Shown piece after piece: positions 2,404-15,604 of a stretch of DNA of 15,604 nt. The DNA lies in the IMG/VR virus record IMGVR_UViG_2657245483_000005; one strand, 5' to 3'. The stretch's first letter is position 1. Each line of letters opens with the position of its first letter. Source of the DNA: a virus (taxonomy: Duplodnaviria; Heunggongvirae; Uroviricota; Caudoviricetes). A model generated the notes under the pieces. The model was not told where the DNA came from, made no database searches, and saw only the letters and a program-made list of their open reading frames with translations. Position numbers and translations under genes: made by a program.

Positions 2404-3894
2404 ATGCCTAACGGCTTATCTGTATCACGCGTCGTTCGCGTGCAGGTCGCGCTCGCCGTTCGCGCGGCGGCCGGGCGTAACTTCGGCGCGCTGCTGGTTC
2501 TCGGCACCGCCGACGTAATCACTGCCCCGGAAGTGATGCGCCTTTACCAGGATATCGAAAGTGTCGCCACCGACTTTGGCACTACCGCTGAAGAGTACAA
2601 GGCGGCAAACCTTTACTTCCAGCAGTCGCCGCAGCCCCGCGATCTTTATATCGGAAAACTGGAACGCGCCTCCAGCCCGGCAACGGCCGGCAAGCTCACT
2701 GGTGCTGTACTGACCTCTGCAGAGCAGGCAATCGCAAACTTCACCGCGGTTGACGATGGCGCGATTAAGATCTCGGTGGACGGCACTGTTAAAACCGTAA
2801 CGGGTATCGACCTGTCAGCGGTGACCGATCTGGCCGGAGTAGCGACGGCCATCACTGCGAAACTTACCGGCACCGCCGTTTCCTACGTGGCCGGCTCGAA
2901 TCAGTTTGTGGTGACGTCTTCCACTACCGGGGCCACCTCAGCAATTGGTATTCCTGTTGCTGCCGGCACTGGCACTGACCTGGCGCCGCTGCTGGGCATT
3001 GACTCAGCGCATAACCCAACCGTGTCAAACGGCCAGGATGCTTCATCTTCAGTGCTGCCGTCGGTGAACACAGCGCTGAACTACTCAGCCGACTGGTACG
3101 GCCTGGTTATCGCCGATACTGCAATGACGGACCAGGACCATATCGATGTTTCTGCCCTGATCGGCTCTGCGAGCGATTCCCGGGTGTACGGTGTGACGAC
3201 TGCGGCGGCCGAGGTCCTGGACTCAACCAGCACCACGGATATTGCCTACAGGCTGAAAGCCGCCGGTTATGGCCGCACGTTCTGCCAGTACAGCCAGGTG
3301 CCTTATGCCGCAGCCTCTGCCTTTGGTCGCGCGTTCACAGTAAATTTCCTGGGTAACAACACCACCATTACCCTGAAATTCAAGCAGGAACCGGGCATTA
3401 CTGCCGAGACGATCACCGCGCAGCAGGCCGATACGCTCAAGGCAAAAAACTGCAACGTATTTGTGCGCTACGCCAACGATACCGCCATCATCCAGGAAGG
3501 CGTGATGTCCAACGGCGATTTCTTCGACGAGCGCCACGGCCTCGACTGGCTGCAGAATTACGTCCAGAACAACCTCTGGAACCTGCTTTACACCTCAACC
3601 ACCAAAATCCCGCAGACCGAAGCGGGCGTGACGCGCCTGGTGACCAATGTCGAACAGTCGATGGACCAGTCTGTAAACAACGGTCTGGTGGCACCGGGAA
3701 TCTGGAACGGCGGTGACGTCGGACAGCTGACATCAGGCGATATGCTGACCAAAGGCTATTACGTTTACGCGAACCCGCTCAACGCCCAGGCGCAGGCAGA
3801 TCGTGAAGCGCGTAAGGCGCCGGTGATTCAGGTAGCAACCAAACTGGCGGGGGCTATCCACTTCGCTGATGTATTAATCGACGTGGTGCGCTAA
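2404..3894 (+). CDS. Tail sheath protein (DUF3383-like)
   Basis: 496-aa ORF directly upstream of the tube, frameshifted chaperone and tape measure; size and position are typical of a myovirus sheath. GGAG precedes the ATG. Confidence 0.8.
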
Positions 3895-3905: not shown

Positions 3906-4346
3906 ATGAGCACTTATTCTTTTCTGGATATCACGGGGTCAATGACTGGCCCCACCGGGGTGATTGACCTCGGCGCCGGTTCTGCCAACTCCGAAGAGGG
4001 CATTACCATCGCCATGGTCGAAAACAAAAACACCATGACGATCGGCGCTGACGGCGAGGGCATGCACTCCCTGCACGCCGGCAAGGCTGGAACGGTAACC
4101 GTTAACCTTCTGAAAACCTCGCCGGTGAACAAAAAGCTGTCTCTGGCCTACAACGCGCAAAGCCAGTCCTCAGCGCTGTGGGGTAATAACGTCTTTGTGT
4201 TCCGCAACACTGCATCTGGCGACATCATGACCGCGCGCGGCGGCGCCTTCCAGAAGCACCCCGACTGGCAGAACGCCAAAGAGGGCGGGACGGTGGCCTG
4301 GGTGTTCGACTGCATCAAAATTGACCCGTTCCTGGGGGAGTATTAA
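3906..4346 (+). CDS. Tail tube protein (DUF3277-like)
   Basis: 146-aa ORF between the sheath and the tail assembly chaperone; AAGGGGG RBS upstream. Confidence 0.75.
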   Translation: MSTYSFLDITGSMTGPTGVIDLGAGSANSEEGITIAMVENKNTMTIGADGEGMHSLHAGKAGTVTVNLLKTSPVNKKLSLAYNAQSQSSALWGNNVFVFRNTASGDIMTARGGAFQKHPDWQNAKEGGTVAWVFDCIKIDPFLGEY

Positions 4347-4349
4347 TTC

Positions 4350-4775
4350 ATGGAAATTACTATCAAGTATCAGCAGTACCGTATCGCTAAGTTAAGCGTT
4401 TTCGAACAGCTGAAGGTATCCCGCAAGCTGCTGCCGGTTCTGGCGGGTCTGGTTTCTGACTTCCGTAACATCCAGACGAAGCTGAATGCCAAAGACACCG
4501 AAGGCGCGATGGAAAGTATTCTTCCGAAGATCGCTGGCGCCGTTTCCGGCCTCAGTGATGATGATGTGAATGCGATCCTTTTTCCCTGCCTGCAGGTGGT
4601 GGCGCGCAAACACTTGAGCGCCTGGGTGCCGGTGTGCCAGCAGGGCACCATGGCCTTTGACGATATCGACCTGTTCGTGATGCTGCAGCTTGTGGCGCGG
4701 GTGGTCGCCGATTCGCTGGGAAATTTTTTGCAAGGACTTCCTACCAGCGAGACGAACACCCAGCCTGCGGAATAA
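4350..4775 (+). CDS. Tail assembly chaperone, short product (lambda G / P2 E analogue)
   Basis: 141-aa ORF immediately upstream of the tape measure; it contains a slippery heptamer near its 3' end and a -1 frame that is open to the tape measure start. Confidence 0.75.
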   Translation: MEITIKYQQYRIAKLSVFEQLKVSRKLLPVLAGLVSDFRNIQTKLNAKDTEGAMESILPKIAGAVSGLSDDDVNAILFPCLQVVARKHLSAWVPVCQQGTMAFDDIDLFVMLQLVARVVADSLGNFLQGLPTSETNTQPAE

Positions 4776-4963
4776 CCTTTAACACCCTGCCGGGCGGTGA
4801 GGATTACATCCTTCGCCCGGCGCTCGCCTTCAACCTCGATCAGAAAGACCTCGACAGCGGTGCAGTGGACCTGTGCCGCATCGCGCTGCTTAACGATTAC
4901 CTCGATATGCGTGACGATAACGACGCGCGCGTAGCCAAATGGAGAGCCCAGAACAATGGCTGA
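4350..4963 (+). CDS. Tail assembly chaperone, -1 frameshift-extended product (GT / E+E' analogue, about 204 aa)
   Basis: The -1 frame entered at A_AAT_TTT (4721-4727) has no stop until TGA 4961-4963; I translated it codon by codon. The extension fills the otherwise ORF-free 180 bp before the tape measure ATG at 4956. Confidence 0.65.
4721..4727 (+). promoter_or_regulatory. Programmed -1 ribosomal frameshift slippery site (A_AAU_UUU)
   Basis: The heptamer fits X_XXY_YYZ in the zero frame (gga AAT TTT ttg). It is followed by more Ts and sits 16 codons before the zero-frame stop. Confidence 0.6.
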
Positions 4964-6935
4964 TACTATCCGTGATTACCTGGTCTCTCTGGGGTTCGAT
5001 ATCGACGGCGCGGGCCAGGCGAAGTTTGAAGCCACGCTCAAAGGTGTGGCCGCGAACGTCGTAAAACTGGGGGCCATAGTTGAGTCGACGGGGCTGGCCA
5101 TTGTGGGCTTCACCGCCTCGATCGCCAGCGGCCTTGATAAACTCTACTGGGCCGCGGAACGCACCGGGGCATCGGTCAACGGCATCAAGGCGCTTGGCTA
5201 TGCTGCCTCACAAACCGGCTCCAGCGCCGAGGCTGCCCAGAACTCACTGGAGAGCCTGGCGCGCTTCATGCGCAGCAATCCCGGCGCCGAAGGCTTCCTG
5301 AACCGCCTGGGGGTGCAGACCCGGGACGCTTCCGGACAGATGCGCGACATGTCGGCTATCTTCACCGGCGTCGGCCAGCGCCTCAGCAGCATGCCCTATT
5401 ATCGAGCCAATCAGTTCGCGCAGATGCTGGGCATTGACGAAAACACGCTGATGGCAATGCGGCGAGGAATGTCCGGCTTCACGGCTGAATACCAGTCGAT
5501 GATGCAGAAGACAGGCTTCGATGCTGACAGGGCCGCGCAGCAGTCCAACAAGTTCATGACCTCAATGCGCAACTTCGTTTCGCTACTGGGGATCTTGCGC
5601 GATAAGGTTGGCTCGAATCTGGCCGGCGGCCTGAGCGGCACGCTGAACAATCTCAGCAAGCAGATGCTGGAGAACTGGCCGAAGATAGAGGGCGTGGTCA
5701 CGAAGATAGTGAAGGGGGTGCTCTTTGCTGCTGATGTCATTACCCAGATGGCGTGGCGCGTCTCGCAGGCGGTAGGCGGCCTGATTGAGTGGTTTAAAAA
5801 GCTGCCGCCGGATATACAGCAGCTAATCATGCTGGTGTCCGGGCTGGTTTCGGCGTGGCAGCTGCTTAACGCTGAGTTCCTCAAATCGCCGATAGGTATC
5901 GTAATCGCGCTAGGCTCGGCGCTGTTCGCGCTTTACGACGACTACAAAACCTGGAAAGAAGGCGGTCAAAGCCTGCTGCCCTGGGATAAATGGGAGCCAG
6001 AAATAGAGGCTGCCCTGAAATCGCTTGGCGAGCTGCGGGATTCTGTGAAGGCGATAGGGGTTGAAATCGCAAAGCTGCTCAATATCAACCTCAAAAACTG
6101 GACCCTTAAAGGCGACATCGACAACCTCACTAAGCAGTTCGGTGAGTTTGGCAAGATGATTAAGATGATTGGCGACCTGATAAACGCCATCAACGAGGGG
6201 CGTTGGAAAGATGCTTATGCGATCGGCAAGAACCTGCTGGCACAAGGGCAAGGCCAGGATGCTCTACCTGCAGTATCTGACAGCGCTAACAATACTGCTG
6301 ACTGGATAGAGGGCAAGACGGGGTTCGACCCGCGAAGCATCGGGAAAACAATAAACGGGTGGATTTTCGGCAAAGAAGAGGGCGGCTCAGACCAGCAGGA
6401 GAGCGGCCCGGGCAAGACGCTGGCCGACCGTAACAACAATCCTGGCAACCTGCGCCCCGTCGGCGGCACCGGTTTTACCTCTCATCAGACGCCGCTTGAT
6501 GGTTGGATGGCAATGGCCAGGCAGATCCGTCTTTATTTCACCGGAAAAAGCGCGGCCGCCGGGTATGAAAAACTCCAGTCAATATGGGACATCATCCACA
6601 AATACGCACCTGCCAGCGACAACAACGACCCCGAGGCCTATTCGAACTTCGTAGCCAATATGATGGGCGTGGGCGCTAAGGACACGCTGAACCTGAGCGA
6701 CCCGCAGCAGTTCAGCAACCTTCTGCAGGCCATGTCCAGGAAGGAAGGTTACGGTCAGTGGAATTCCCCATTGGCCAGCGTTGCCGCTACGCAGGCAGCC
6801 GCGCAGATCAGCCAGGAAACGAACATCAATATTTACGGCGCGAGCGACCCGGCATCCACTGGCCGGGAGGTTGCCGATCGTCAATCCGGCGTTAATTCCC
6901 GTCTTACTCAGCAGCTACAACCGAGGGTCTACTGA
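4956..6935 (+). CDS. Tail tape measure protein
   Basis: 659-aa ORF immediately after the frameshifted chaperone, with a GGAGAG RBS. Ala/Gly/Gln-rich with a helical-looking composition, and the longest gene in the module. Confidence 0.85.
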   Translation: MADTIRDYLVSLGFDIDGAGQAKFEATLKGVAANVVKLGAIVESTGLAIVGFTASIASGLDKLYWAAERTGASVNGIKALGYAASQTGSSAEAAQNSLESLARFMRSNPGAEGFLNRLGVQTRDASGQMRDMSAIFTGVGQRLSSMPYYRANQFAQMLGIDENTLMAMRRGMSGFTAEYQSMMQKTGFDADRAAQQSNKFMTSMRNFVSLLGILRDKVGSNLAGGLSGTLNNLSKQMLENWPKIEGVVTKIVKGVLFAADVITQMAWRVSQAVGGLIEWFKKLPPDIQQLIMLVSGLVSAWQLLNAEFLKSPIGIVIALGSALFALYDDYKTWKEGGQSLLPWDKWEPEIEAALKSLGELRDSVKAIGVEIAKLLNINLKNWTLKGDIDNLTKQFGEFGKMIKMIGDLINAINEGRWKDAYAIGKNLLAQGQGQDALPAVSDSANNTADWIEGKTGFDPRSIGKTINGWIFGKEEGGSDQQESGPGKTLADRNNNPGNLRPVGGTGFTSHQTPLDGWMAMARQIRLYFTGKSAAAGYEKLQSIWDIIHKYAPASDNNDPEAYSNFVANMMGVGAKDTLNLSDPQQFSNLLQAMSRKEGYGQWNSPLASVAATQAAAQISQETNINIYGASDPASTGREVADRQSGVNSRLTQQLQPRVY

Positions 6936-9275: not shown

Positions 9276-9626
9276 TTACTCGTCTTTAAAACTTATAATT
9301 TTGTACTGCTCCAGTACTTCTGAAAGCTCCTTTGATGTCAGATTTTGTATTTCGATCGTACCTTTTTCAGTGGTTACCGTTATTTTTTTTGATGATCTGG
9401 TCTGTAACCATTTTCTCGCTATCGATGCAATGGCGATACAAGCTGGTGATGATGTGATAACGGTAATAGATATTTCGAGAATTGTGCCAATAGCGCCAGG
9501 AGAATCACCCGTTCTGACTCTTTTACTTACTACATAGTCATTAGCGGGTATGTTATCCTGGATTACAGGAAGTAACTCTTTCCAAATAGCTGGAGTAAAT
9601 TTTATGGTTGTTTCTGATTTTGGCAT
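9276..9626 (-). CDS. Hypothetical cytoplasmic protein, cargo gene, AT-rich
   Basis: 116-aa minus-strand ORF inside the AT-rich insertion, hydrophilic and balanced in composition. The plus-strand ORFs over the same DNA look like antisense junk. No strong RBS was seen, so the exact start is uncertain. Confidence 0.55.
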   Translation of the reverse strand: MPKSETTIKFTPAIWKELLPVIQDNIPANDYVVSKRVRTGDSPGAIGTILEISITVITSSPACIAIASIARKWLQTRSSKKITVTTEKGTIEIQNLTSKELSEVLEQYKIISFKDE

Positions 9627-12054: not shown

Positions 12055-12731
12055 GTAGGTACACGGATCTAATCACTAACTACCACGCCACTAAGCCGAA
12101 ATACCTCGATCACATCGATCTTAGTACCCGTCCCCTGATTGATATCACGTCAGCCACAAGGGGCCTGGTGAGTGCGTTTGACATTGATACGGCTGTTGGC
12201 GTGCAACTCGATATTCTCGGACTCTGGATTGGACGTAGCCGTATAGTCAGCCAGCCCATTAGTGGCGTTTATTTCAGTTGGGACACGGAGGGGCTCGGAT
12301 ATGACCAGGGCGTATGGCAGGGGCCATATGATCCTGACTCCGGCTATACGACGCTTAGCGATGATACCTATCGCACTATTCTGAAAGCAAAAATCGCTAT
12401 TAACAACTGGGACGGGCGTAACGACTCGCTTCCGGACATTCTTGACACTGCCACAGTGGGTTCGGGCCTGAAGATGCAGATCGTCGACAATCAGGACATG
12501 ACGATATCGGTCTGGGTATTTCCCGAGACTGATATTTCTGATGTGTCTCTCGAACTGATCGCCGCTATCAAACAGGGCTATCTCACCGTTAAAGCCGCTG
12601 GCGTCTGGGCCGGTGATGTTGAAATGCCTTCGGTTGAAACACCGTCCGAAGGAACAAAATTCTTTGGATTTGACATGGATAACGAATACATCGCCGGTTT
12701 TGATGACGGCGCATGGGGGAGATTACTTTAA
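12051..12731 (+). CDS. Baseplate wedge / tail-fibre attachment protein (gpI-like, DUF2612-like)
   Basis: ATGA overlap with the gpJ-like stop; 226 aa, immediately upstream of the tail fibre gene. Confidence 0.6.
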   Translation: MSRYTDLITNYHATKPKYLDHIDLSTRPLIDITSATRGLVSAFDIDTAVGVQLDILGLWIGRSRIVSQPISGVYFSWDTEGLGYDQGVWQGPYDPDSGYTTLSDDTYRTILKAKIAINNWDGRNDSLPDILDTATVGSGLKMQIVDNQDMTISVWVFPETDISDVSLELIAAIKQGYLTVKAAGVWAGDVEMPSVETPSEGTKFFGFDMDNEYIAGFDDGAWGRLL

Positions 12732-13510
12732 TGGCTGGAACTAATGATTTTAAAGCGTTTGCGACAGATGCTAATGCAAATGTTACCTCGCAGGAGGAAT
12801 GGGAGACGCTAACCGCACTGAAGAAAGGATTCTCCTCGGGTAAAGCATCCAGCGCACAGGTCAGTAAAGCGCTGCGCCAACCGTCGACGATGGCGGCTGT
12901 ACTGGGGCAGTTTATCGCGAACGCCGAACTGGACGCGCTCGATGATGGTGACGTTGATGGACTGGTGGCAAAGCTGGCGACAGCGATTACCACAAACCTT
13001 GGTTTGGGAGAAGGCTCAGCATTACCCGTTGGCGTACCTGTTCCGTGGCCTTCAGCCACACCGCCGACAGGCTGGCTGAAATGCAACGGTGCCGCTTTTT
13101 CTGCTGAAGAATACCCGGAACTGGCAAAGGCTTACCCGACAAATAAATTGCCTGATTTACGTGGTGAGTTTATTCGTGGCTGGGATGACGGGCGTGGAGT
13201 GGATAGCGGTCGTACTTTATTAACGAATCAAGAGCATGCAGTAATTTCTCATAATCATGGAATACCTACAAAAGTGGGGTCAGTTACTAATATCCCGTAT
13301 GGAATAGAACAGGTTATATCTGATGAAACCATTTTTTCATCAGCAAAAACAGTTGGTGTGGATTACTGGTCTAACAGTGAAAGAGTTTTTACTTATACCT
13401 CTGGTGGAAGAAATGGTGCTGAATCAGTGAGTTCACCTGATGCCTCCTCTTTAATTAAAGAAACCAGACCACGGAACCTAGCATTTGCGTATATCGTGAG
13501 GGCTGCATAA
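12731..13510 (+). CDS. Tail fibre protein: constant N-terminal part (codons 1-90) plus currently joined variable C-terminal part
   Basis: TAATG overlap start at 12731 (an alternative in-frame ATG lies at 12713). The C-terminal part contains LPDLRGEFIRGWDDGRGVDSGRTL, a collar-type motif I recall from tail fibre proteins. A crossover site sits at codons 86-94. Confidence 0.8.
   Translation: MAGTNDFKAFATDANANVTSQEEWETLTALKKGFSSGKASSAQVSKALRQPSTMAAVLGQFIANAELDALDDGDVDGLVAKLATAITTNLGLGEGSALPVGVPVPWPSATPPTGWLKCNGAAFSAEEYPELAKAYPTNKLPDLRGEFIRGWDDGRGVDSGRTLLTNQEHAVISHNHGIPTKVGSVTNIPYGIEQVISDETIFSSAKTVGVDYWSNSERVFTYTSGGRNGAESVSSPDASSLIKETRPRNLAFAYIVRAA
12987..13012. repeat. Left crossover site of the invertible segment (hix/gix-like 26-bp imperfect palindrome)
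   Basis: ttaccacaaaccttggtttgggagaa, central dinucleotide TT at 12999-13000. It is 21/26 identical to the reverse complement of the site at 14971-14996. Confidence 0.7.
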
Positions 13511-14112
13511 TGGTGAAAGCAAAATTAAACAGTGCGTTTATTGCCACCGTGGCAGGTGAAATCACTGTGTACAACTACCGGGGCGACACCCGCGAATACA
13601 TATCCTCATCGGTTGAGTATCTGCCTGTGGGGGTGGGTATTCCTGCCAATTCCTGTACCGATGCGCCCGGCACACATAAAGCTGGTTATGCAATCTGCCG
13701 TTCTGCAGATTTTAACTCATGGGAATATGTGCCAGACCATCGCGGTGAAACGGTATATAGCACTGAAACAGGAGAATCAAAAGAAATCACAGCTCCGGGT
13801 GATTACTCTGAAAATACAACTACTATCGCCCCGTTAACGCCATTCGATAAATGGGATGGTGAGAAATGGGTGACCGATACTGAGGCACAGCATAGCGCCG
13901 CAGTAGACGTGGCAGAAGCACAGCGCCAGTCGCTGATTGATGCTGCTATGGCTTCCATCAGTCTGATTCAGCTGAAATTGCAGGCCGGGCGGCAACTGAC
14001 GCAAGCAGAAATCACTCGCCTTAACGCTGTGCTGGATTACATTGACACGGTGACGGCAACAGATACCAGCACCGCGCCGGATGTCATCTGGCCTGAACTG
14101 CCGGAGGCGTAG
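13510..14112 (+). CDS. Tail fibre assembly protein (Mu U / lambda Tfa-like), currently expressed orientation
   Basis: TAATG overlap with the fibre stop; 200 aa; C-terminal LDYIDTV..DTSTAPDVIWPELP matches the conserved Tfa C-terminal pattern. Confidence 0.75.
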   Translation: MVKAKLNSAFIATVAGEITVYNYRGDTREYISSSVEYLPVGVGIPANSCTDAPGTHKAGYAICRSADFNSWEYVPDHRGETVYSTETGESKEITAPGDYSENTTTIAPLTPFDKWDGEKWVTDTEAQHSAAVDVAEAQRQSLIDAAMASISLIQLKLQAGRQLTQAEITRLNAVLDYIDTVTATDTSTAPDVIWPELPEA

Positions 14113-14527
14113 GCCATTCAATATCTGGAGCACTGGAGGTATCAACCAGTTCCAGTGCGTCCAGATAATCCAGCCACAAATTATATTGCGCCAGTTCCTC
14201 ACTTTTCAGACGACCAATCGCCGCTTTGCCAGGCCACTGATGAGTATTGATGTAGGTATTGACTTCAGAAACCAAAGATATTTTTTTCATTTCAGCCGTC
14301 AACACCTCATCCTCTTTTGAAGGGGGTGGGGAATTAATCCATACTGGCCGTCCTGAACTGTCAGCGCCAATTTCTTTCCCTTCTGGATGCAGCCCAAGAA
14401 ATTGCTCATATGTTTCTCTGGTAATTTCAATAACATCATCAGGAAGCGTTCCCGCATCCTCATATTCTGGAAACAATTCTTGCAGATAAAAACTTTTACT
14501 TCCGGGTGAAAAGAATACTGAGTTCAT
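14084..14527 (-). CDS. Alternative tail fibre assembly protein (U'-like)
   Basis: Minus-strand 147-aa ORF with C-terminal LDYLDALELVDTSSAPDIEWPTPP, matching the Tfa pattern; located directly downstream of the minus-strand fibre tip. Confidence 0.7.
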   Translation of the reverse strand: MNSVFFSPGSKSFYLQELFPEYEDAGTLPDDVIEITRETYEQFLGLHPEGKEIGADSSGRPVWINSPPPSKEDEVLTAEMKKISLVSEVNTYINTHQWPGKAAIGRLKSEELAQYNLWLDYLDALELVDTSSAPDIEWPTPPAVQAR

Positions 14528-14529
14528 TC

Positions 14530-14982
14530 TTACCGTCCAATGATTAATGCTGAGACGCTGGTATCTGAAGGAAAGGCTGCATTCAGTGGTTTGTCGACTT
14601 TGAACACAATCGTATTATTCCCCCTGACAGCGGCAAAAGAACAAACCGCAGTCGCGTATGAACCTGTAATATTACTGGATACACCACCATAAGCTGTTGT
14701 TGATACCAGAGGGATAACGCCCAGCACCTTATTAGGAAATACAAAGGGCAATGTGGCTGTGGCAATATAAGACTTATTAGAACCTGTAATGGCATAAGCA
14801 TTATCAGTCATTCCATTCATCGCCACCGGGCCGCTTATACTTACAGTAACCATCTGAATGATTAGCCCGTCAGGTTGACGAATCACAAAATTTCCATTGC
14901 CACCAGTAACCGTCCAGAAAGACATATCAGGGATTTGGTTTTCCCCGTTGCCCACATTCCGTTTTGCCGCTTCTCCCAAACC
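14530..14982 (-). CDS. Alternative tail fibre C-terminal cassette (Sv'-like), startless, fused to the fibre gene only after inversion
   Basis: Minus-strand frame open from the right crossover site to the stop at 14530. The sequence after the core encodes GLGE, the same residues that follow the core in the plus-strand fibre, and the frame matches. Confidence 0.7.
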   Translation of the reverse strand, partial: GLGEAAKRNVGNGENQIPDMSFWTVTGGNGNFVIRQPDGLIIQMVTVSISGPVAMNGMTDNAYAITGSNKSYIATATLPFVFPNKVLGVIPLVSTTAYGGVSSNITGSYATAVCSFAAVRGNNTIVFKVDKPLNAAFPSDTSVSALIIGR

Positions 14983-14996
14983 AACCTTTTTTATAA
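14971..14996. repeat. Right crossover site of the invertible segment (hix/gix-like)
   Basis: ttctcccaaaccaaccttttttataa, central AA at 14983-14984; the inner 14 bp are identical to the inner half of the left site in inverted orientation. It lies 60 bp upstream of the invertase ATG. Confidence 0.7.
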
Positions 14997-15026
14997 CCAT
15001 CAAAAATCTGGTGATGCTTCGCCGTT

Positions 15027-15049
15027 TCTCCTGTTTTCATAACAGGAGA
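15027..15049 (+). promoter_or_regulatory. Perfect 9-bp stem hairpin that includes the invertase Shine-Dalgarno
   Basis: tctcctgtt / ttcat / aacaggaga; the right arm contains AGGAG, 7 nt before the ATG at 15056. Confidence 0.5.
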
Positions 15050-15055
15050 AATCCC

Positions 15056-15604
15056 ATGATTTACGGTTATGCCCGAGTATCAACAAACCACCAGGACACT
15101 GAATTGCAACTAACGGCGCTCAAGTCAGCGGGTTGTGAGAAAATTTTTGAAGAGCATGCCAGCGGGAGGAAATCGAATCGGCCGGTTCTAAAACGGCTGA
15201 TCGCCACTATGCAGCCGGGGGATGAACTGGTGGTCTGGAAGCTGGACAGGATAGGCCGCAACGTTCTGCATGCGCTGTTGATGTTCCAGCAGTTACAGGA
15301 AAAGGGTATCAACTTCCGCAGTATTACCGATGGCGTGGATCTCAAAACAGCCAGCGGCCGCTATAACTTTCGTAACATCCTTTCCGCAGCACAATATGAA
15401 TCTGATCTTAATAGCGAACGTACCTTAGCAGGGCTGGCCGTAGCCAGGGCAAAAGGGCGAGTTGGTGGTCGCAGGCCTAAGTTCACGGATGAGCAATGGC
15501 GGGAAATGGGGGAGCGGATGGCAACCGGTGAATCACGACAAAGCGTATCAAAAACGTATGGAGTAGGGCTCTCAACTCTGTATAAAAAGTTTCCAGCTAG
15601 CTGA
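15056..15604 (+). CDS. Serine DNA invertase (Hin/Gin/Cin/Pin family)
   Basis: Starts MIYGYARVSTNHQDTELQ, with the catalytic Ser in the RVST motif, and has a C-terminal helix-turn-helix (GESRQSVSKTYGVGLSTLYKKFPA). The track ORF begins at 14897, but the family-conserved N-terminus and RBS place the start at 15056. The stop is at the window end. Confidence 0.93.
   Translation: MIYGYARVSTNHQDTELQLTALKSAGCEKIFEEHASGRKSNRPVLKRLIATMQPGDELVVWKLDRIGRNVLHALLMFQQLQEKGINFRSITDGVDLKTASGRYNFRNILSAAQYESDLNSERTLAGLAVARAKGRVGGRRPKFTDEQWREMGERMATGESRQSVSKTYGVGLSTLYKKFPAS

Follow-up and report, generated by a model that had tools for sequence, protein, structure and literature searches.

The -1 frameshift that gives rise to gpG and gpGT in phage lambda was reportedly described by Levin and colleagues in 1993 and by Xu, Hendrix, and Duda in 2004, 2013, and 2014. 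The slippery heptamer of lambda is G_GGA_AAG. The lambda G/GT mechanism and its conservation have been reviewed (PMC5009743). For the E/E+E' frameshift of phage P2, the reported slip site is TTTTTTG, with no structure downstream of it (Christie et al. 2002, cited in PMC3091744). Here, we analyze a tail assembly chaperone gene of an E. coli prophage in a stretch of 15,604 nucleotides (nt) from a virus assigned to the Caudoviricetes (IMG/VR record IMGVR_UViG_2657245483_000005). This complete stretch is referred to as the window, and all coordinates are those of the window and on the + strand unless stated otherwise. We consider it very likely that, as in lambda G/GT and P2 E/E+E', ribosomes undergo a programmed -1 frameshift in this gene, which occurs on the tract GGGAAATTTTTTG.

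The slippery tract and the extension of the chaperone

The short, zero-frame product of the chaperone gene (4350-4775) has 141 residues and is the G-like protein of the system. Its residues 8-128 match positions 3-121 of the 127 positions of Pfam profile Phage_TAC_15 (PF21822; 109.4 bits with a cut-off of 22). The protein also matches PHROG 1688 ('tail assembly chaperone', E = 5e-53). The criteria for membership in the G/GT type were those of Xu et al. 2004. The chaperone gene and its extension follow the tail tube gene and precede the tape measure gene, with an apparent gap of 180 bp (4776-4955) between chaperone and tape measure.

The zero-frame codons at the slip site read GAT TCG CTG (4716) GGA AAT TTT TTG (4728) CAA GGA. 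An earlier reading, made from the sequence only, had reported a heptamer A_AAU_UUU 16 codons before the chaperone stop codon. This heptamer is found at 4721-4727, with its TTT codon at 4725 and the TAA at 4773-4775, and it is in the X_XXY_YYZ phase because the zero-frame codons read CTG GGA AAT TTT TTG. Its proposed role as the slippery site stands only in part, however, as it is the middle one of three overlapping heptamers, all of them in phase: G_GGA_AAT (4718-4724, register 1), A_AAT_TTT (4721-4727, register 2), and T_TTT_TTG (4724-4730, register 3). As read from the sequence, the slippery element G_GGA_AAU_UUU_UUG thus comprises 13 nt (4718-4730).

The -1 frame is open from 4661 to a TGA at 4961-4963, which amounts to 78 sense codons when counted from 4727 and to 79 when counted from 4724. 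All coordinates of the sequence-only reading proved correct, including the overlap of this frame with the tape measure ATG at 4956. The extension itself, the GT-like part, consists of 78 codons and the TGA (4727-4963). Its initial part (4727-4775) is dual-coding, as it specifies the last 16 codons of the short product and, in the -1 frame, the predicted linker of the long product. It had also been noted that the open reading frame (ORF) track of the window omits the extension. Indeed, among the listed ORFs that have a start codon, none of at least 40 residues is in the -1 frame, and the extension is missing because this frame has no early start codon.

The predicted long product has 204 residues and consists of chaperone residues 1-126 followed by the -1 extension. 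Its junction is predicted to be ..SLGNFFARTSYQ.. for registers 1 and 2 and ..SLGNFLARTSYQ.. for register 3. The register changes residue 127 only (Phe or Leu), so that the junction peptides are ..LGNFFARTSYQ.. or ..LGNFLARTSYQ..; the peptide LGNFF-FARTSYQ proposed earlier contains one Phe too many. The predicted tryptic junction peptide is VVADSLGNFFAR upon slippage on G_GGA_AAU or A_AAU_UUU and VVADSLGNFLAR upon slippage on U_UUU_UUG. The zero-frame C-terminal peptide of the short product is VVADSLGNFLQGLPTSETNTQPAE.

The 78-residue translation of the -1 frame matches Pfam domain DUF6889 (PF21829) with 47.5 bits (cut-off 23.9, E = 1.4e-12). This match spans extension residues 39-76 (4841-4954) and profile positions 3-40 of 40, and it delimits the core of the T-like C-terminal domain. 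A wider match, to PHROG 4364, covers extension residues 25-77 (4799-4957, E = 1.1e-17). In a codon alignment of 86 distinct relatives, the nucleotide diversity within the gap is 0.297, 0.251, and 0.565 for codon positions 1, 2, and 3 of the -1 frame. This third-position excess indicates that the gap is translated as protein. Several zero-frame codons downstream of the slip site show reduced synonymous diversity. The part of the -1 ORF that precedes the conserved LPGG motif contains no ATG, GTG, or TTG, neither in the window nor in 63 of 94 distinct loci.

The length of the open frame was rejected as a measure of significance. Open frames of about 100 codons are not rare in the G+C-rich window, and length alone proves nothing because antisense ORFs of 113 and 129 residues overlap the same chaperone gene. 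The -1 "extensions" of other genes were likewise rejected as a comparison, as each is merely the next overlapping gene. We consider the extension to be beyond chance because of its matches to Pfam and PHROG, the codon-position pattern, and its conservation across relatives. The same evidence confirms the earlier claim that the 180-bp gap is coding. The extension is coding, is in the -1 frame of the chaperone, and does not have a start codon of its own.

In an AlphaFold model of the extension, residues 1-16 have a predicted local distance difference test (pLDDT) score below 50, and three helices are found over residues 24-76 (mean pLDDT 71.6). The model suggests that residues 1-16, which are the dual-coding part, form a disordered linker. 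A Foldseek comparison of this model to BFVD and PDB returned no match with E <1, and a PDB sequence search with the fusion protein returned no match.

Conservation in relatives and the slippery register

The arrangement is kept in every intact relative examined, down to less than 30% protein identity; the counts given here cover intact loci only. GGGAAATTTTTT[G/A] is found in all 19 IMG/VR loci, where the -1 extension comprises 62-64 codons. A set of 12 diverse phages has chaperones with 28-60% identity, the hosts being Burkholderia, Acinetobacter, Bordetella, Ralstonia, Providencia, Edwardsiella, Salmonella, Yersinia, and others. Each has a -1 extension of 55-75 codons which ends at or near the tape measure start, and the extension motif LP(G/D)GE...DIALMND is present in all 12. 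For a species-level scan (Enterobacterales), one genome per bacterial species was used and loci were found with peptide patterns located far from the slip site. The -1 extension has 60-65 codons (median 62) in 69 of 69 loci, while the +1 frame extends for a median of 8 codons. The next long ORF begins 4-22 nt before the end of the -1 ORF in 66 of these, and at least one in-phase heptamer is present in every one of the 69. In a distant environmental (metagenomic) clade, 29 loci have full-length matches, and each of them has its T-domain in the -1 frame. Four more loci are visibly degenerate (L086, L087, L088, and L106, in Apirhabdus, Arsenophonus, Izhakiella, and Candidatus Phlomobacter). The types of decay seen in them are a truncated chaperone, a stop codon between slip site and extension, and a deletion which fuses the extension to a downstream gene.

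The codons at the slip site are nearly invariant across 86 distinct relatives: Gly is GGA in 78/86, Asn is AAT in 78/78, Phe is TTT in 85/85, and Leu is TTG in 79/80. Control codons are not, with the upstream Phe103 encoded by TTT in 43 and by TTC in 43 cases, and with Asp codons close to 50:50. The slippery tract is under nucleotide-level selection. The assignment to the G/GT type made in the sequence-only reading is thus supported by the gene position, the Pfam chaperone, the conserved startless -1 domain, the frozen slippery tract, the relatives, and two GenBank phage annotations. The latter are entries named 'tape measure chaperone frameshift product' from Klebsiella phage Mulock (MN098327, QFG06717.1) and Burkholderia phage Magia (MT701587, QPB08698.1).

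The three registers differ in their distribution. Among the 69 species-level loci, T_TTT_TTN is found in 68, A_AAT_TTT in 59, and G_GGA_AAT in 55; one Salmonella locus has G_GGA_AAT alone. Outside the Enterobacterales, register 2 is dominant, being present as C_CCT_TTT/C, A_AAT_TTT, or G_GGT_TTT in 20 of 26 metagenomic loci and likewise in phages of Acinetobacter and Burkholderia. There, T_TTT_TTN is often replaced by TTT ATT or TTT ATC. The tetramer U_UUY, with Phe in the A-site register, is almost universal. Heptamers of the form H_HH.U_UU.Y, which include A_AAU_UUU, are the most efficient class in E. coli; A-site tetramers rank A_AA.G > U_UU.Y > C_CC.Y > A_AA.A in E. coli assays, and U_UUG is weak (PMC4066793). 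A_AAU_UUU is a good candidate, though not the sole one, because the conservation of the registers differs by clade and because P2 slips at TTTTTTG. Sequence comparison cannot decide which register is used.

A G-rich element, GGGTGGT (4699-4705), precedes the slip site by 12, 15, and 18 nt for the three registers. In frameshifts of the dnaX/IS3 type, a Shine-Dalgarno-like element is placed about 10-14 nt ahead of the heptamer, so that weak pairing of GGGTGGT would be at a plausible distance. Its predicted duplex with the anti-Shine-Dalgarno sequence has -7.1 kcal/mol, and the same bases encode conserved residues R-V-V. Similar or stronger G-rich tracts such as GTGGAGGA recur in relatives and likewise encode R-V-V. 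Relatives without A_AAT_TTT often carry the stronger GTGGAGGA about 12 nt before T_TTT_TTG. GGGTGGT may be a Shine-Dalgarno-like frameshift stimulator, or it may merely represent the codons for the conserved R-V-V residues.

A strong hairpin at 4788-4822 (-24 kcal/mol) was rejected as a canonical stimulator, being 58 nt downstream and differing in position between clades. It begins 13 nt after the chaperone stop codon. When extension mRNA was compared to synonymous recodings in two 22-codon blocks, the mean z-scores were -1.65 and -1.09 (81 relatives, which are not phylogenetically independent); control blocks from the chaperone gave -0.29 and -0.09. The extension is thus more structured, and selection for structure may act on the rarely translated stretch 4776-4955. 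An Rfam scan of 4500-5100 gave only a chance match to a miRNA model, and a promoter and terminator scan of the gap gave none.

As a tentative proposal, which we consider rather less probable than not to hold in full, the 13-nt tract could be a tandem slippery cassette with three registers. Several registers would then add to the total rate and would produce Phe and Leu isoforms at residue 127, and the rate would be adjusted in individual lineages through the loss or retention of registers. The upstream G-rich, Shine-Dalgarno-like element would assist, and the mRNA of the rarely translated extension would be selected for structure.

Alternative explanations and proposed mechanism

The DUF6889 region might be a separate small gene with its own start (GTG at 4865, 32 residues) which is not joined to the chaperone. 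RefSeq treats it in this way. Window positions 4300-5100 are 99.9% identical to prophages in E. coli chromosomes, including NZ_CP062811, and the RefSeq annotation by the Prokaryotic Genome Annotation Pipeline (PGAP) has the chaperone and a separate 32-residue 'DUF6889 family protein' with a GTG start (4865-4963), but no slippage. Many stand-alone DUF6889 ORFs exist among database entries, and in a few relatives the conserved region has an ATG close to its beginning, as in ORF 1665-1874 of Edwardsiella phage vB_EpM_ZHS and in gp60 of BgManors32. The extension of phage vB_EpM_ZHS is annotated as a separate ORF. However, the database ORFs (42-75 residues) have called starts which are scattered over about 30 alignment columns, and no start codon precedes the motif in the window or in 63 of 94 distinct loci. 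Also, GTG 4865 is located too far downstream to include the beginnings of the Pfam and PHROG matches and of the conserved LPGGED motif, and the ORF is always in the -1 frame relative to the chaperone and open back to the slip tract. Finally, a separate gene leaves the frozen synonymous sites at the slip tract unexplained. We thus consider a separate gene very improbable. The 32-residue coding sequence from GTG 4865 is a truncated mis-call of the extension, with its start inside the Pfam and PHROG matches.

Alternatively, the long form might arise mainly by transcriptional slippage, in which RNA polymerase would lengthen the T6 run (4724-4729) by one U and so bring the two frames together in the mRNA. 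Polymerase slippage on long A or T runs is discussed in PMC4066793. In a related prophage contig (L034), a T7 run results in an in-frame fusion of 213 residues, and fused proteins of 212-213 residues occur in several assemblies. A run of six T is, however, short for efficient polymerase slippage. Relatives keep phased heptamers rather than a long homopolymer, as illustrated by the tracts from Acinetobacter (AAATTTTATT), Burkholderia (CCCTTTTATC), Bordetella (GGGAAATACTTTC), and Salmonella (GGGAAATATTTTG). The closest complete E. coli genomes among the matches listed for the related prophage align over 641 of 642 query bases, which is consistent with T6. RNA polymerase slippage as the main source of the long form is therefore highly unlikely in our view.

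The fused proteins belong to a SEN34-like E. coli prophage lineage. In this lineage, the slip site has T7 (L034 1896-1909, read directly) or T4 (deduced from a 212-residue protein), which leads to in-frame chaperone-DUF6889 fusions of 213 or 212 residues (proteins P0017, P0121, P0125, P0128, and P0133); these runs are either variants in homopolymer length or sequencing errors. For P0133, the fused form is on a Logan contig, and the window chaperone is a different, unfused sequence of 141 residues. Seven distant cluster representatives are also fused in-frame. We rejected these fusions as "Rosetta stone" evidence, as they are weak at best: the cause in L034 is the T7 run, and 29 of 29 distant metagenomic loci are frameshifted. 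Because the closest listed complete genomes fit T6 and all 29 loci retrieved from the distant clade are frameshifted, we consider the fusions to be rare variants or errors. We suspect that fused forms are over-represented among cluster representatives since these tend to be the longest members.

The weakest explanation, that the gap is a non-coding spacer or the remnant of a decayed gene with a fortuitously open -1 frame, is effectively refuted by the matches to DUF6889 and PHROG 4364, by codon-position diversities as expected for a protein under purifying selection, and by the retention of 60-65 codons in 69 species with the +1 frame closing after a median of 8, even though open frames of about 100 codons arise by chance in a G+C-rich window and the gap is not accounted for by a promoter, terminator, or Rfam element.

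Under programmed -1 ribosomal frameshifting, the explanation that we prefer, most ribosomes would stop at the TAA (4773) and produce the 141-residue chaperone. A minority would slip back by one base on G_GGA_AAU_UUU_UUG (4718-4730) and would then read the -1 frame up to the TGA at 4961-4963. The resulting long form of 204 residues would consist of chaperone residues 1-126, a linker of about 16 residues, and the small helical DUF6889 domain. By analogy to lambda, the shared N-terminal part would bind the tape measure protein, which would be coated by the abundant short form, and the frameshift-only domain of the rare long form would recruit the tail tube protein. A fixed slippage rate would set the ratio of short to long form, tail assembly would require both forms, and neither form would be expected in the virion. 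The coding status of the extension and its frame relative to the chaperone are established by the data; slippage itself, its efficiency, its register, and the binding partners of the two domains are inferred.

Several observations weigh against this explanation. The 60 nt on the 3' side of the slip site do not form a stimulatory structure (4731-4790: minimum free energy -7.0 kcal/mol, z-score -0.03), and the mean z-score for this stretch over 87 relatives is +0.15. A downstream hairpin or pseudoknot of the dnaX/IS3 type, 5-9 nt after the heptamer, is thus absent; the stem-loop or pseudoknot that had been suggested for 4728-4780 was not found in a scan extended to 4790. A_AAT_TTT has been lost in 10 of 69 species, 9 of which keep the T-run heptamer (e.g., GGC GGT TTT TTG). 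U_UUU_UUG is absent in the relatives from Acinetobacter and Burkholderia, and the register is ambiguous. Phage vB_EpM_ZHS (L027, about 1590-1610) and locus L145 do not have a canonical heptamer and show only a U_UUU tetramer (GGG GAT TTT ATG and GGT GGT TTT ATC, respectively); the -1 extension is kept in both. Both GenBank annotations, for Mulock and for Magia, were made computationally, and the frameshift goes unmentioned in the paper on Mulock. We found no published experimental detection of the long product in the Phage_TAC_15/DUF6889 family, and a literature search for the Mulock frameshift and for DUF6889 returned nothing. The prophage itself may be defective.

Genomic context, annotation, and comparison with known systems

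Upstream of the chaperone gene, profile matches identify a tail sheath protein of the DUF3383/E217_gp31 type (2404-3894) and a tail tube protein (KPP10_Orf10; 3906-4346). Downstream is the gene for the tape measure protein (4956-6935, 659 residues), which matches PHROG 2276 ('tail length tape measure protein') with E = 9e-222. This gene starts within the -1 ORF, so that the two share 8 nt, and GGAGAG (4941-4946) is its likely ribosome binding site. The C-terminal part of the tape measure protein (6378-6860, residues ~475-635) matches PHROGs for endolysin and tail injection transglycosylase (PHROG 873, E = 4e-32; PHROG 7182, E = 8e-19), and homologs carry the annotation 'transglycosylase SLT domain protein'. 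These matches suggest a tape measure protein with a built-in cell-wall hydrolase. The genes 3' of the tape measure gene code for Dit-like, plug, hub, and baseplate proteins according to Pfam and PHROG profile matches.

Two further features of the window are mentioned here. Within the + strand baseplate module, an ORF of 116 residues on the - strand (9276-9626) matches Pfam EACC1 (Effector Associated Constant Component 1) with 29.1 bits (cut-off 23.6). Judged by this match, it may be a moron or a component of a conflict system. The region 12713-15604 looks like an invertible tail-fiber host-range switch of the Mu G, P1 C, and e14 P type. It comprises a fiber gene with a Collar domain (12713-13510), a tail-fiber assembly gene (13510-14112), an inverted second assembly gene (14084-14527, - strand), an inverted alternative fiber C-terminus (14530-15003, - strand), and a serine invertase with Resolvase and HTH_7 domains (within 14897-15604).

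The phenomenon as such is textbook knowledge, and the homologous product is already annotated in Mulock and Magia; Pfam still lists the T-domain as a domain of unknown function. Older database names for this domain are "lytic transglycosylase" and "NTP pyrophosphohydrolase". The identification of DUF6889 as the frameshift-only C-terminal domain of Phage_TAC_15 chaperones would give a role to a domain of unknown function and would provide the correct product of 204 residues. Tail modules of this kind are found in hundreds of complete E. coli genomes: with the window module and a related SEN34-like tail module as queries, 266 and 337 of 5,426 genomes match at any coverage. The main value is annotation correction; the family adds one more case to the many conserved tail-chaperone frameshifts and does not open a new question.

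With lambda G/GT, the locus shares the position of the chaperone gene, which has the tail tube (major tail) gene on one side and the tape measure gene on the other. In both cases, the short product ends soon after the slip site, the long product runs in the -1 frame to the tape measure start, and the slippery heptamer is of the X_XXY_YYZ form with no requirement for a downstream structure. Register 1, G_GGA_AAU, is one base off the lambda heptamer. Unlike lambda, which is a siphovirus, the virus analyzed here is contractile-tailed with a DUF3383-type sheath, and its tract consists of three overlapping heptamers. The proteins are assigned to Phage_TAC_15 with DUF6889, an assignment that was made without comparing their sequences to the lambda proteins.

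The similarity to P2 concerns the tail operon of an E. coli myovirus, in which the chaperone gene is just upstream of the tape measure gene (T in P2). The heptamer U_UUU_UUG (4724-4730 in the window) is identical and has the same phase, and neither system has a downstream hairpin. The locus differs from P2 in its protein family (homology to P2 E was not compared), in its sheath and tube family, and by the two further heptamers that overlap upstream. Also, non-enterobacterial relatives use the X_XXU_UUY register and lack U_UUU_UUG.

The closest annotated counterparts are in Mulock and Magia. The window chaperone shares about 60% identity with the Mulock protein across most of its length and about 40% with the Magia protein in its C-terminal part. 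The GGGAAATTTTTTG tract is identical in Mulock, whose extension of 62 codons overlaps the tape measure start, whereas Magia has C_CCU_UUU only. Slippage is annotated in these two records, in contrast to the window prophage and its RefSeq E. coli copies, which share the arrangement but carry no such annotation.

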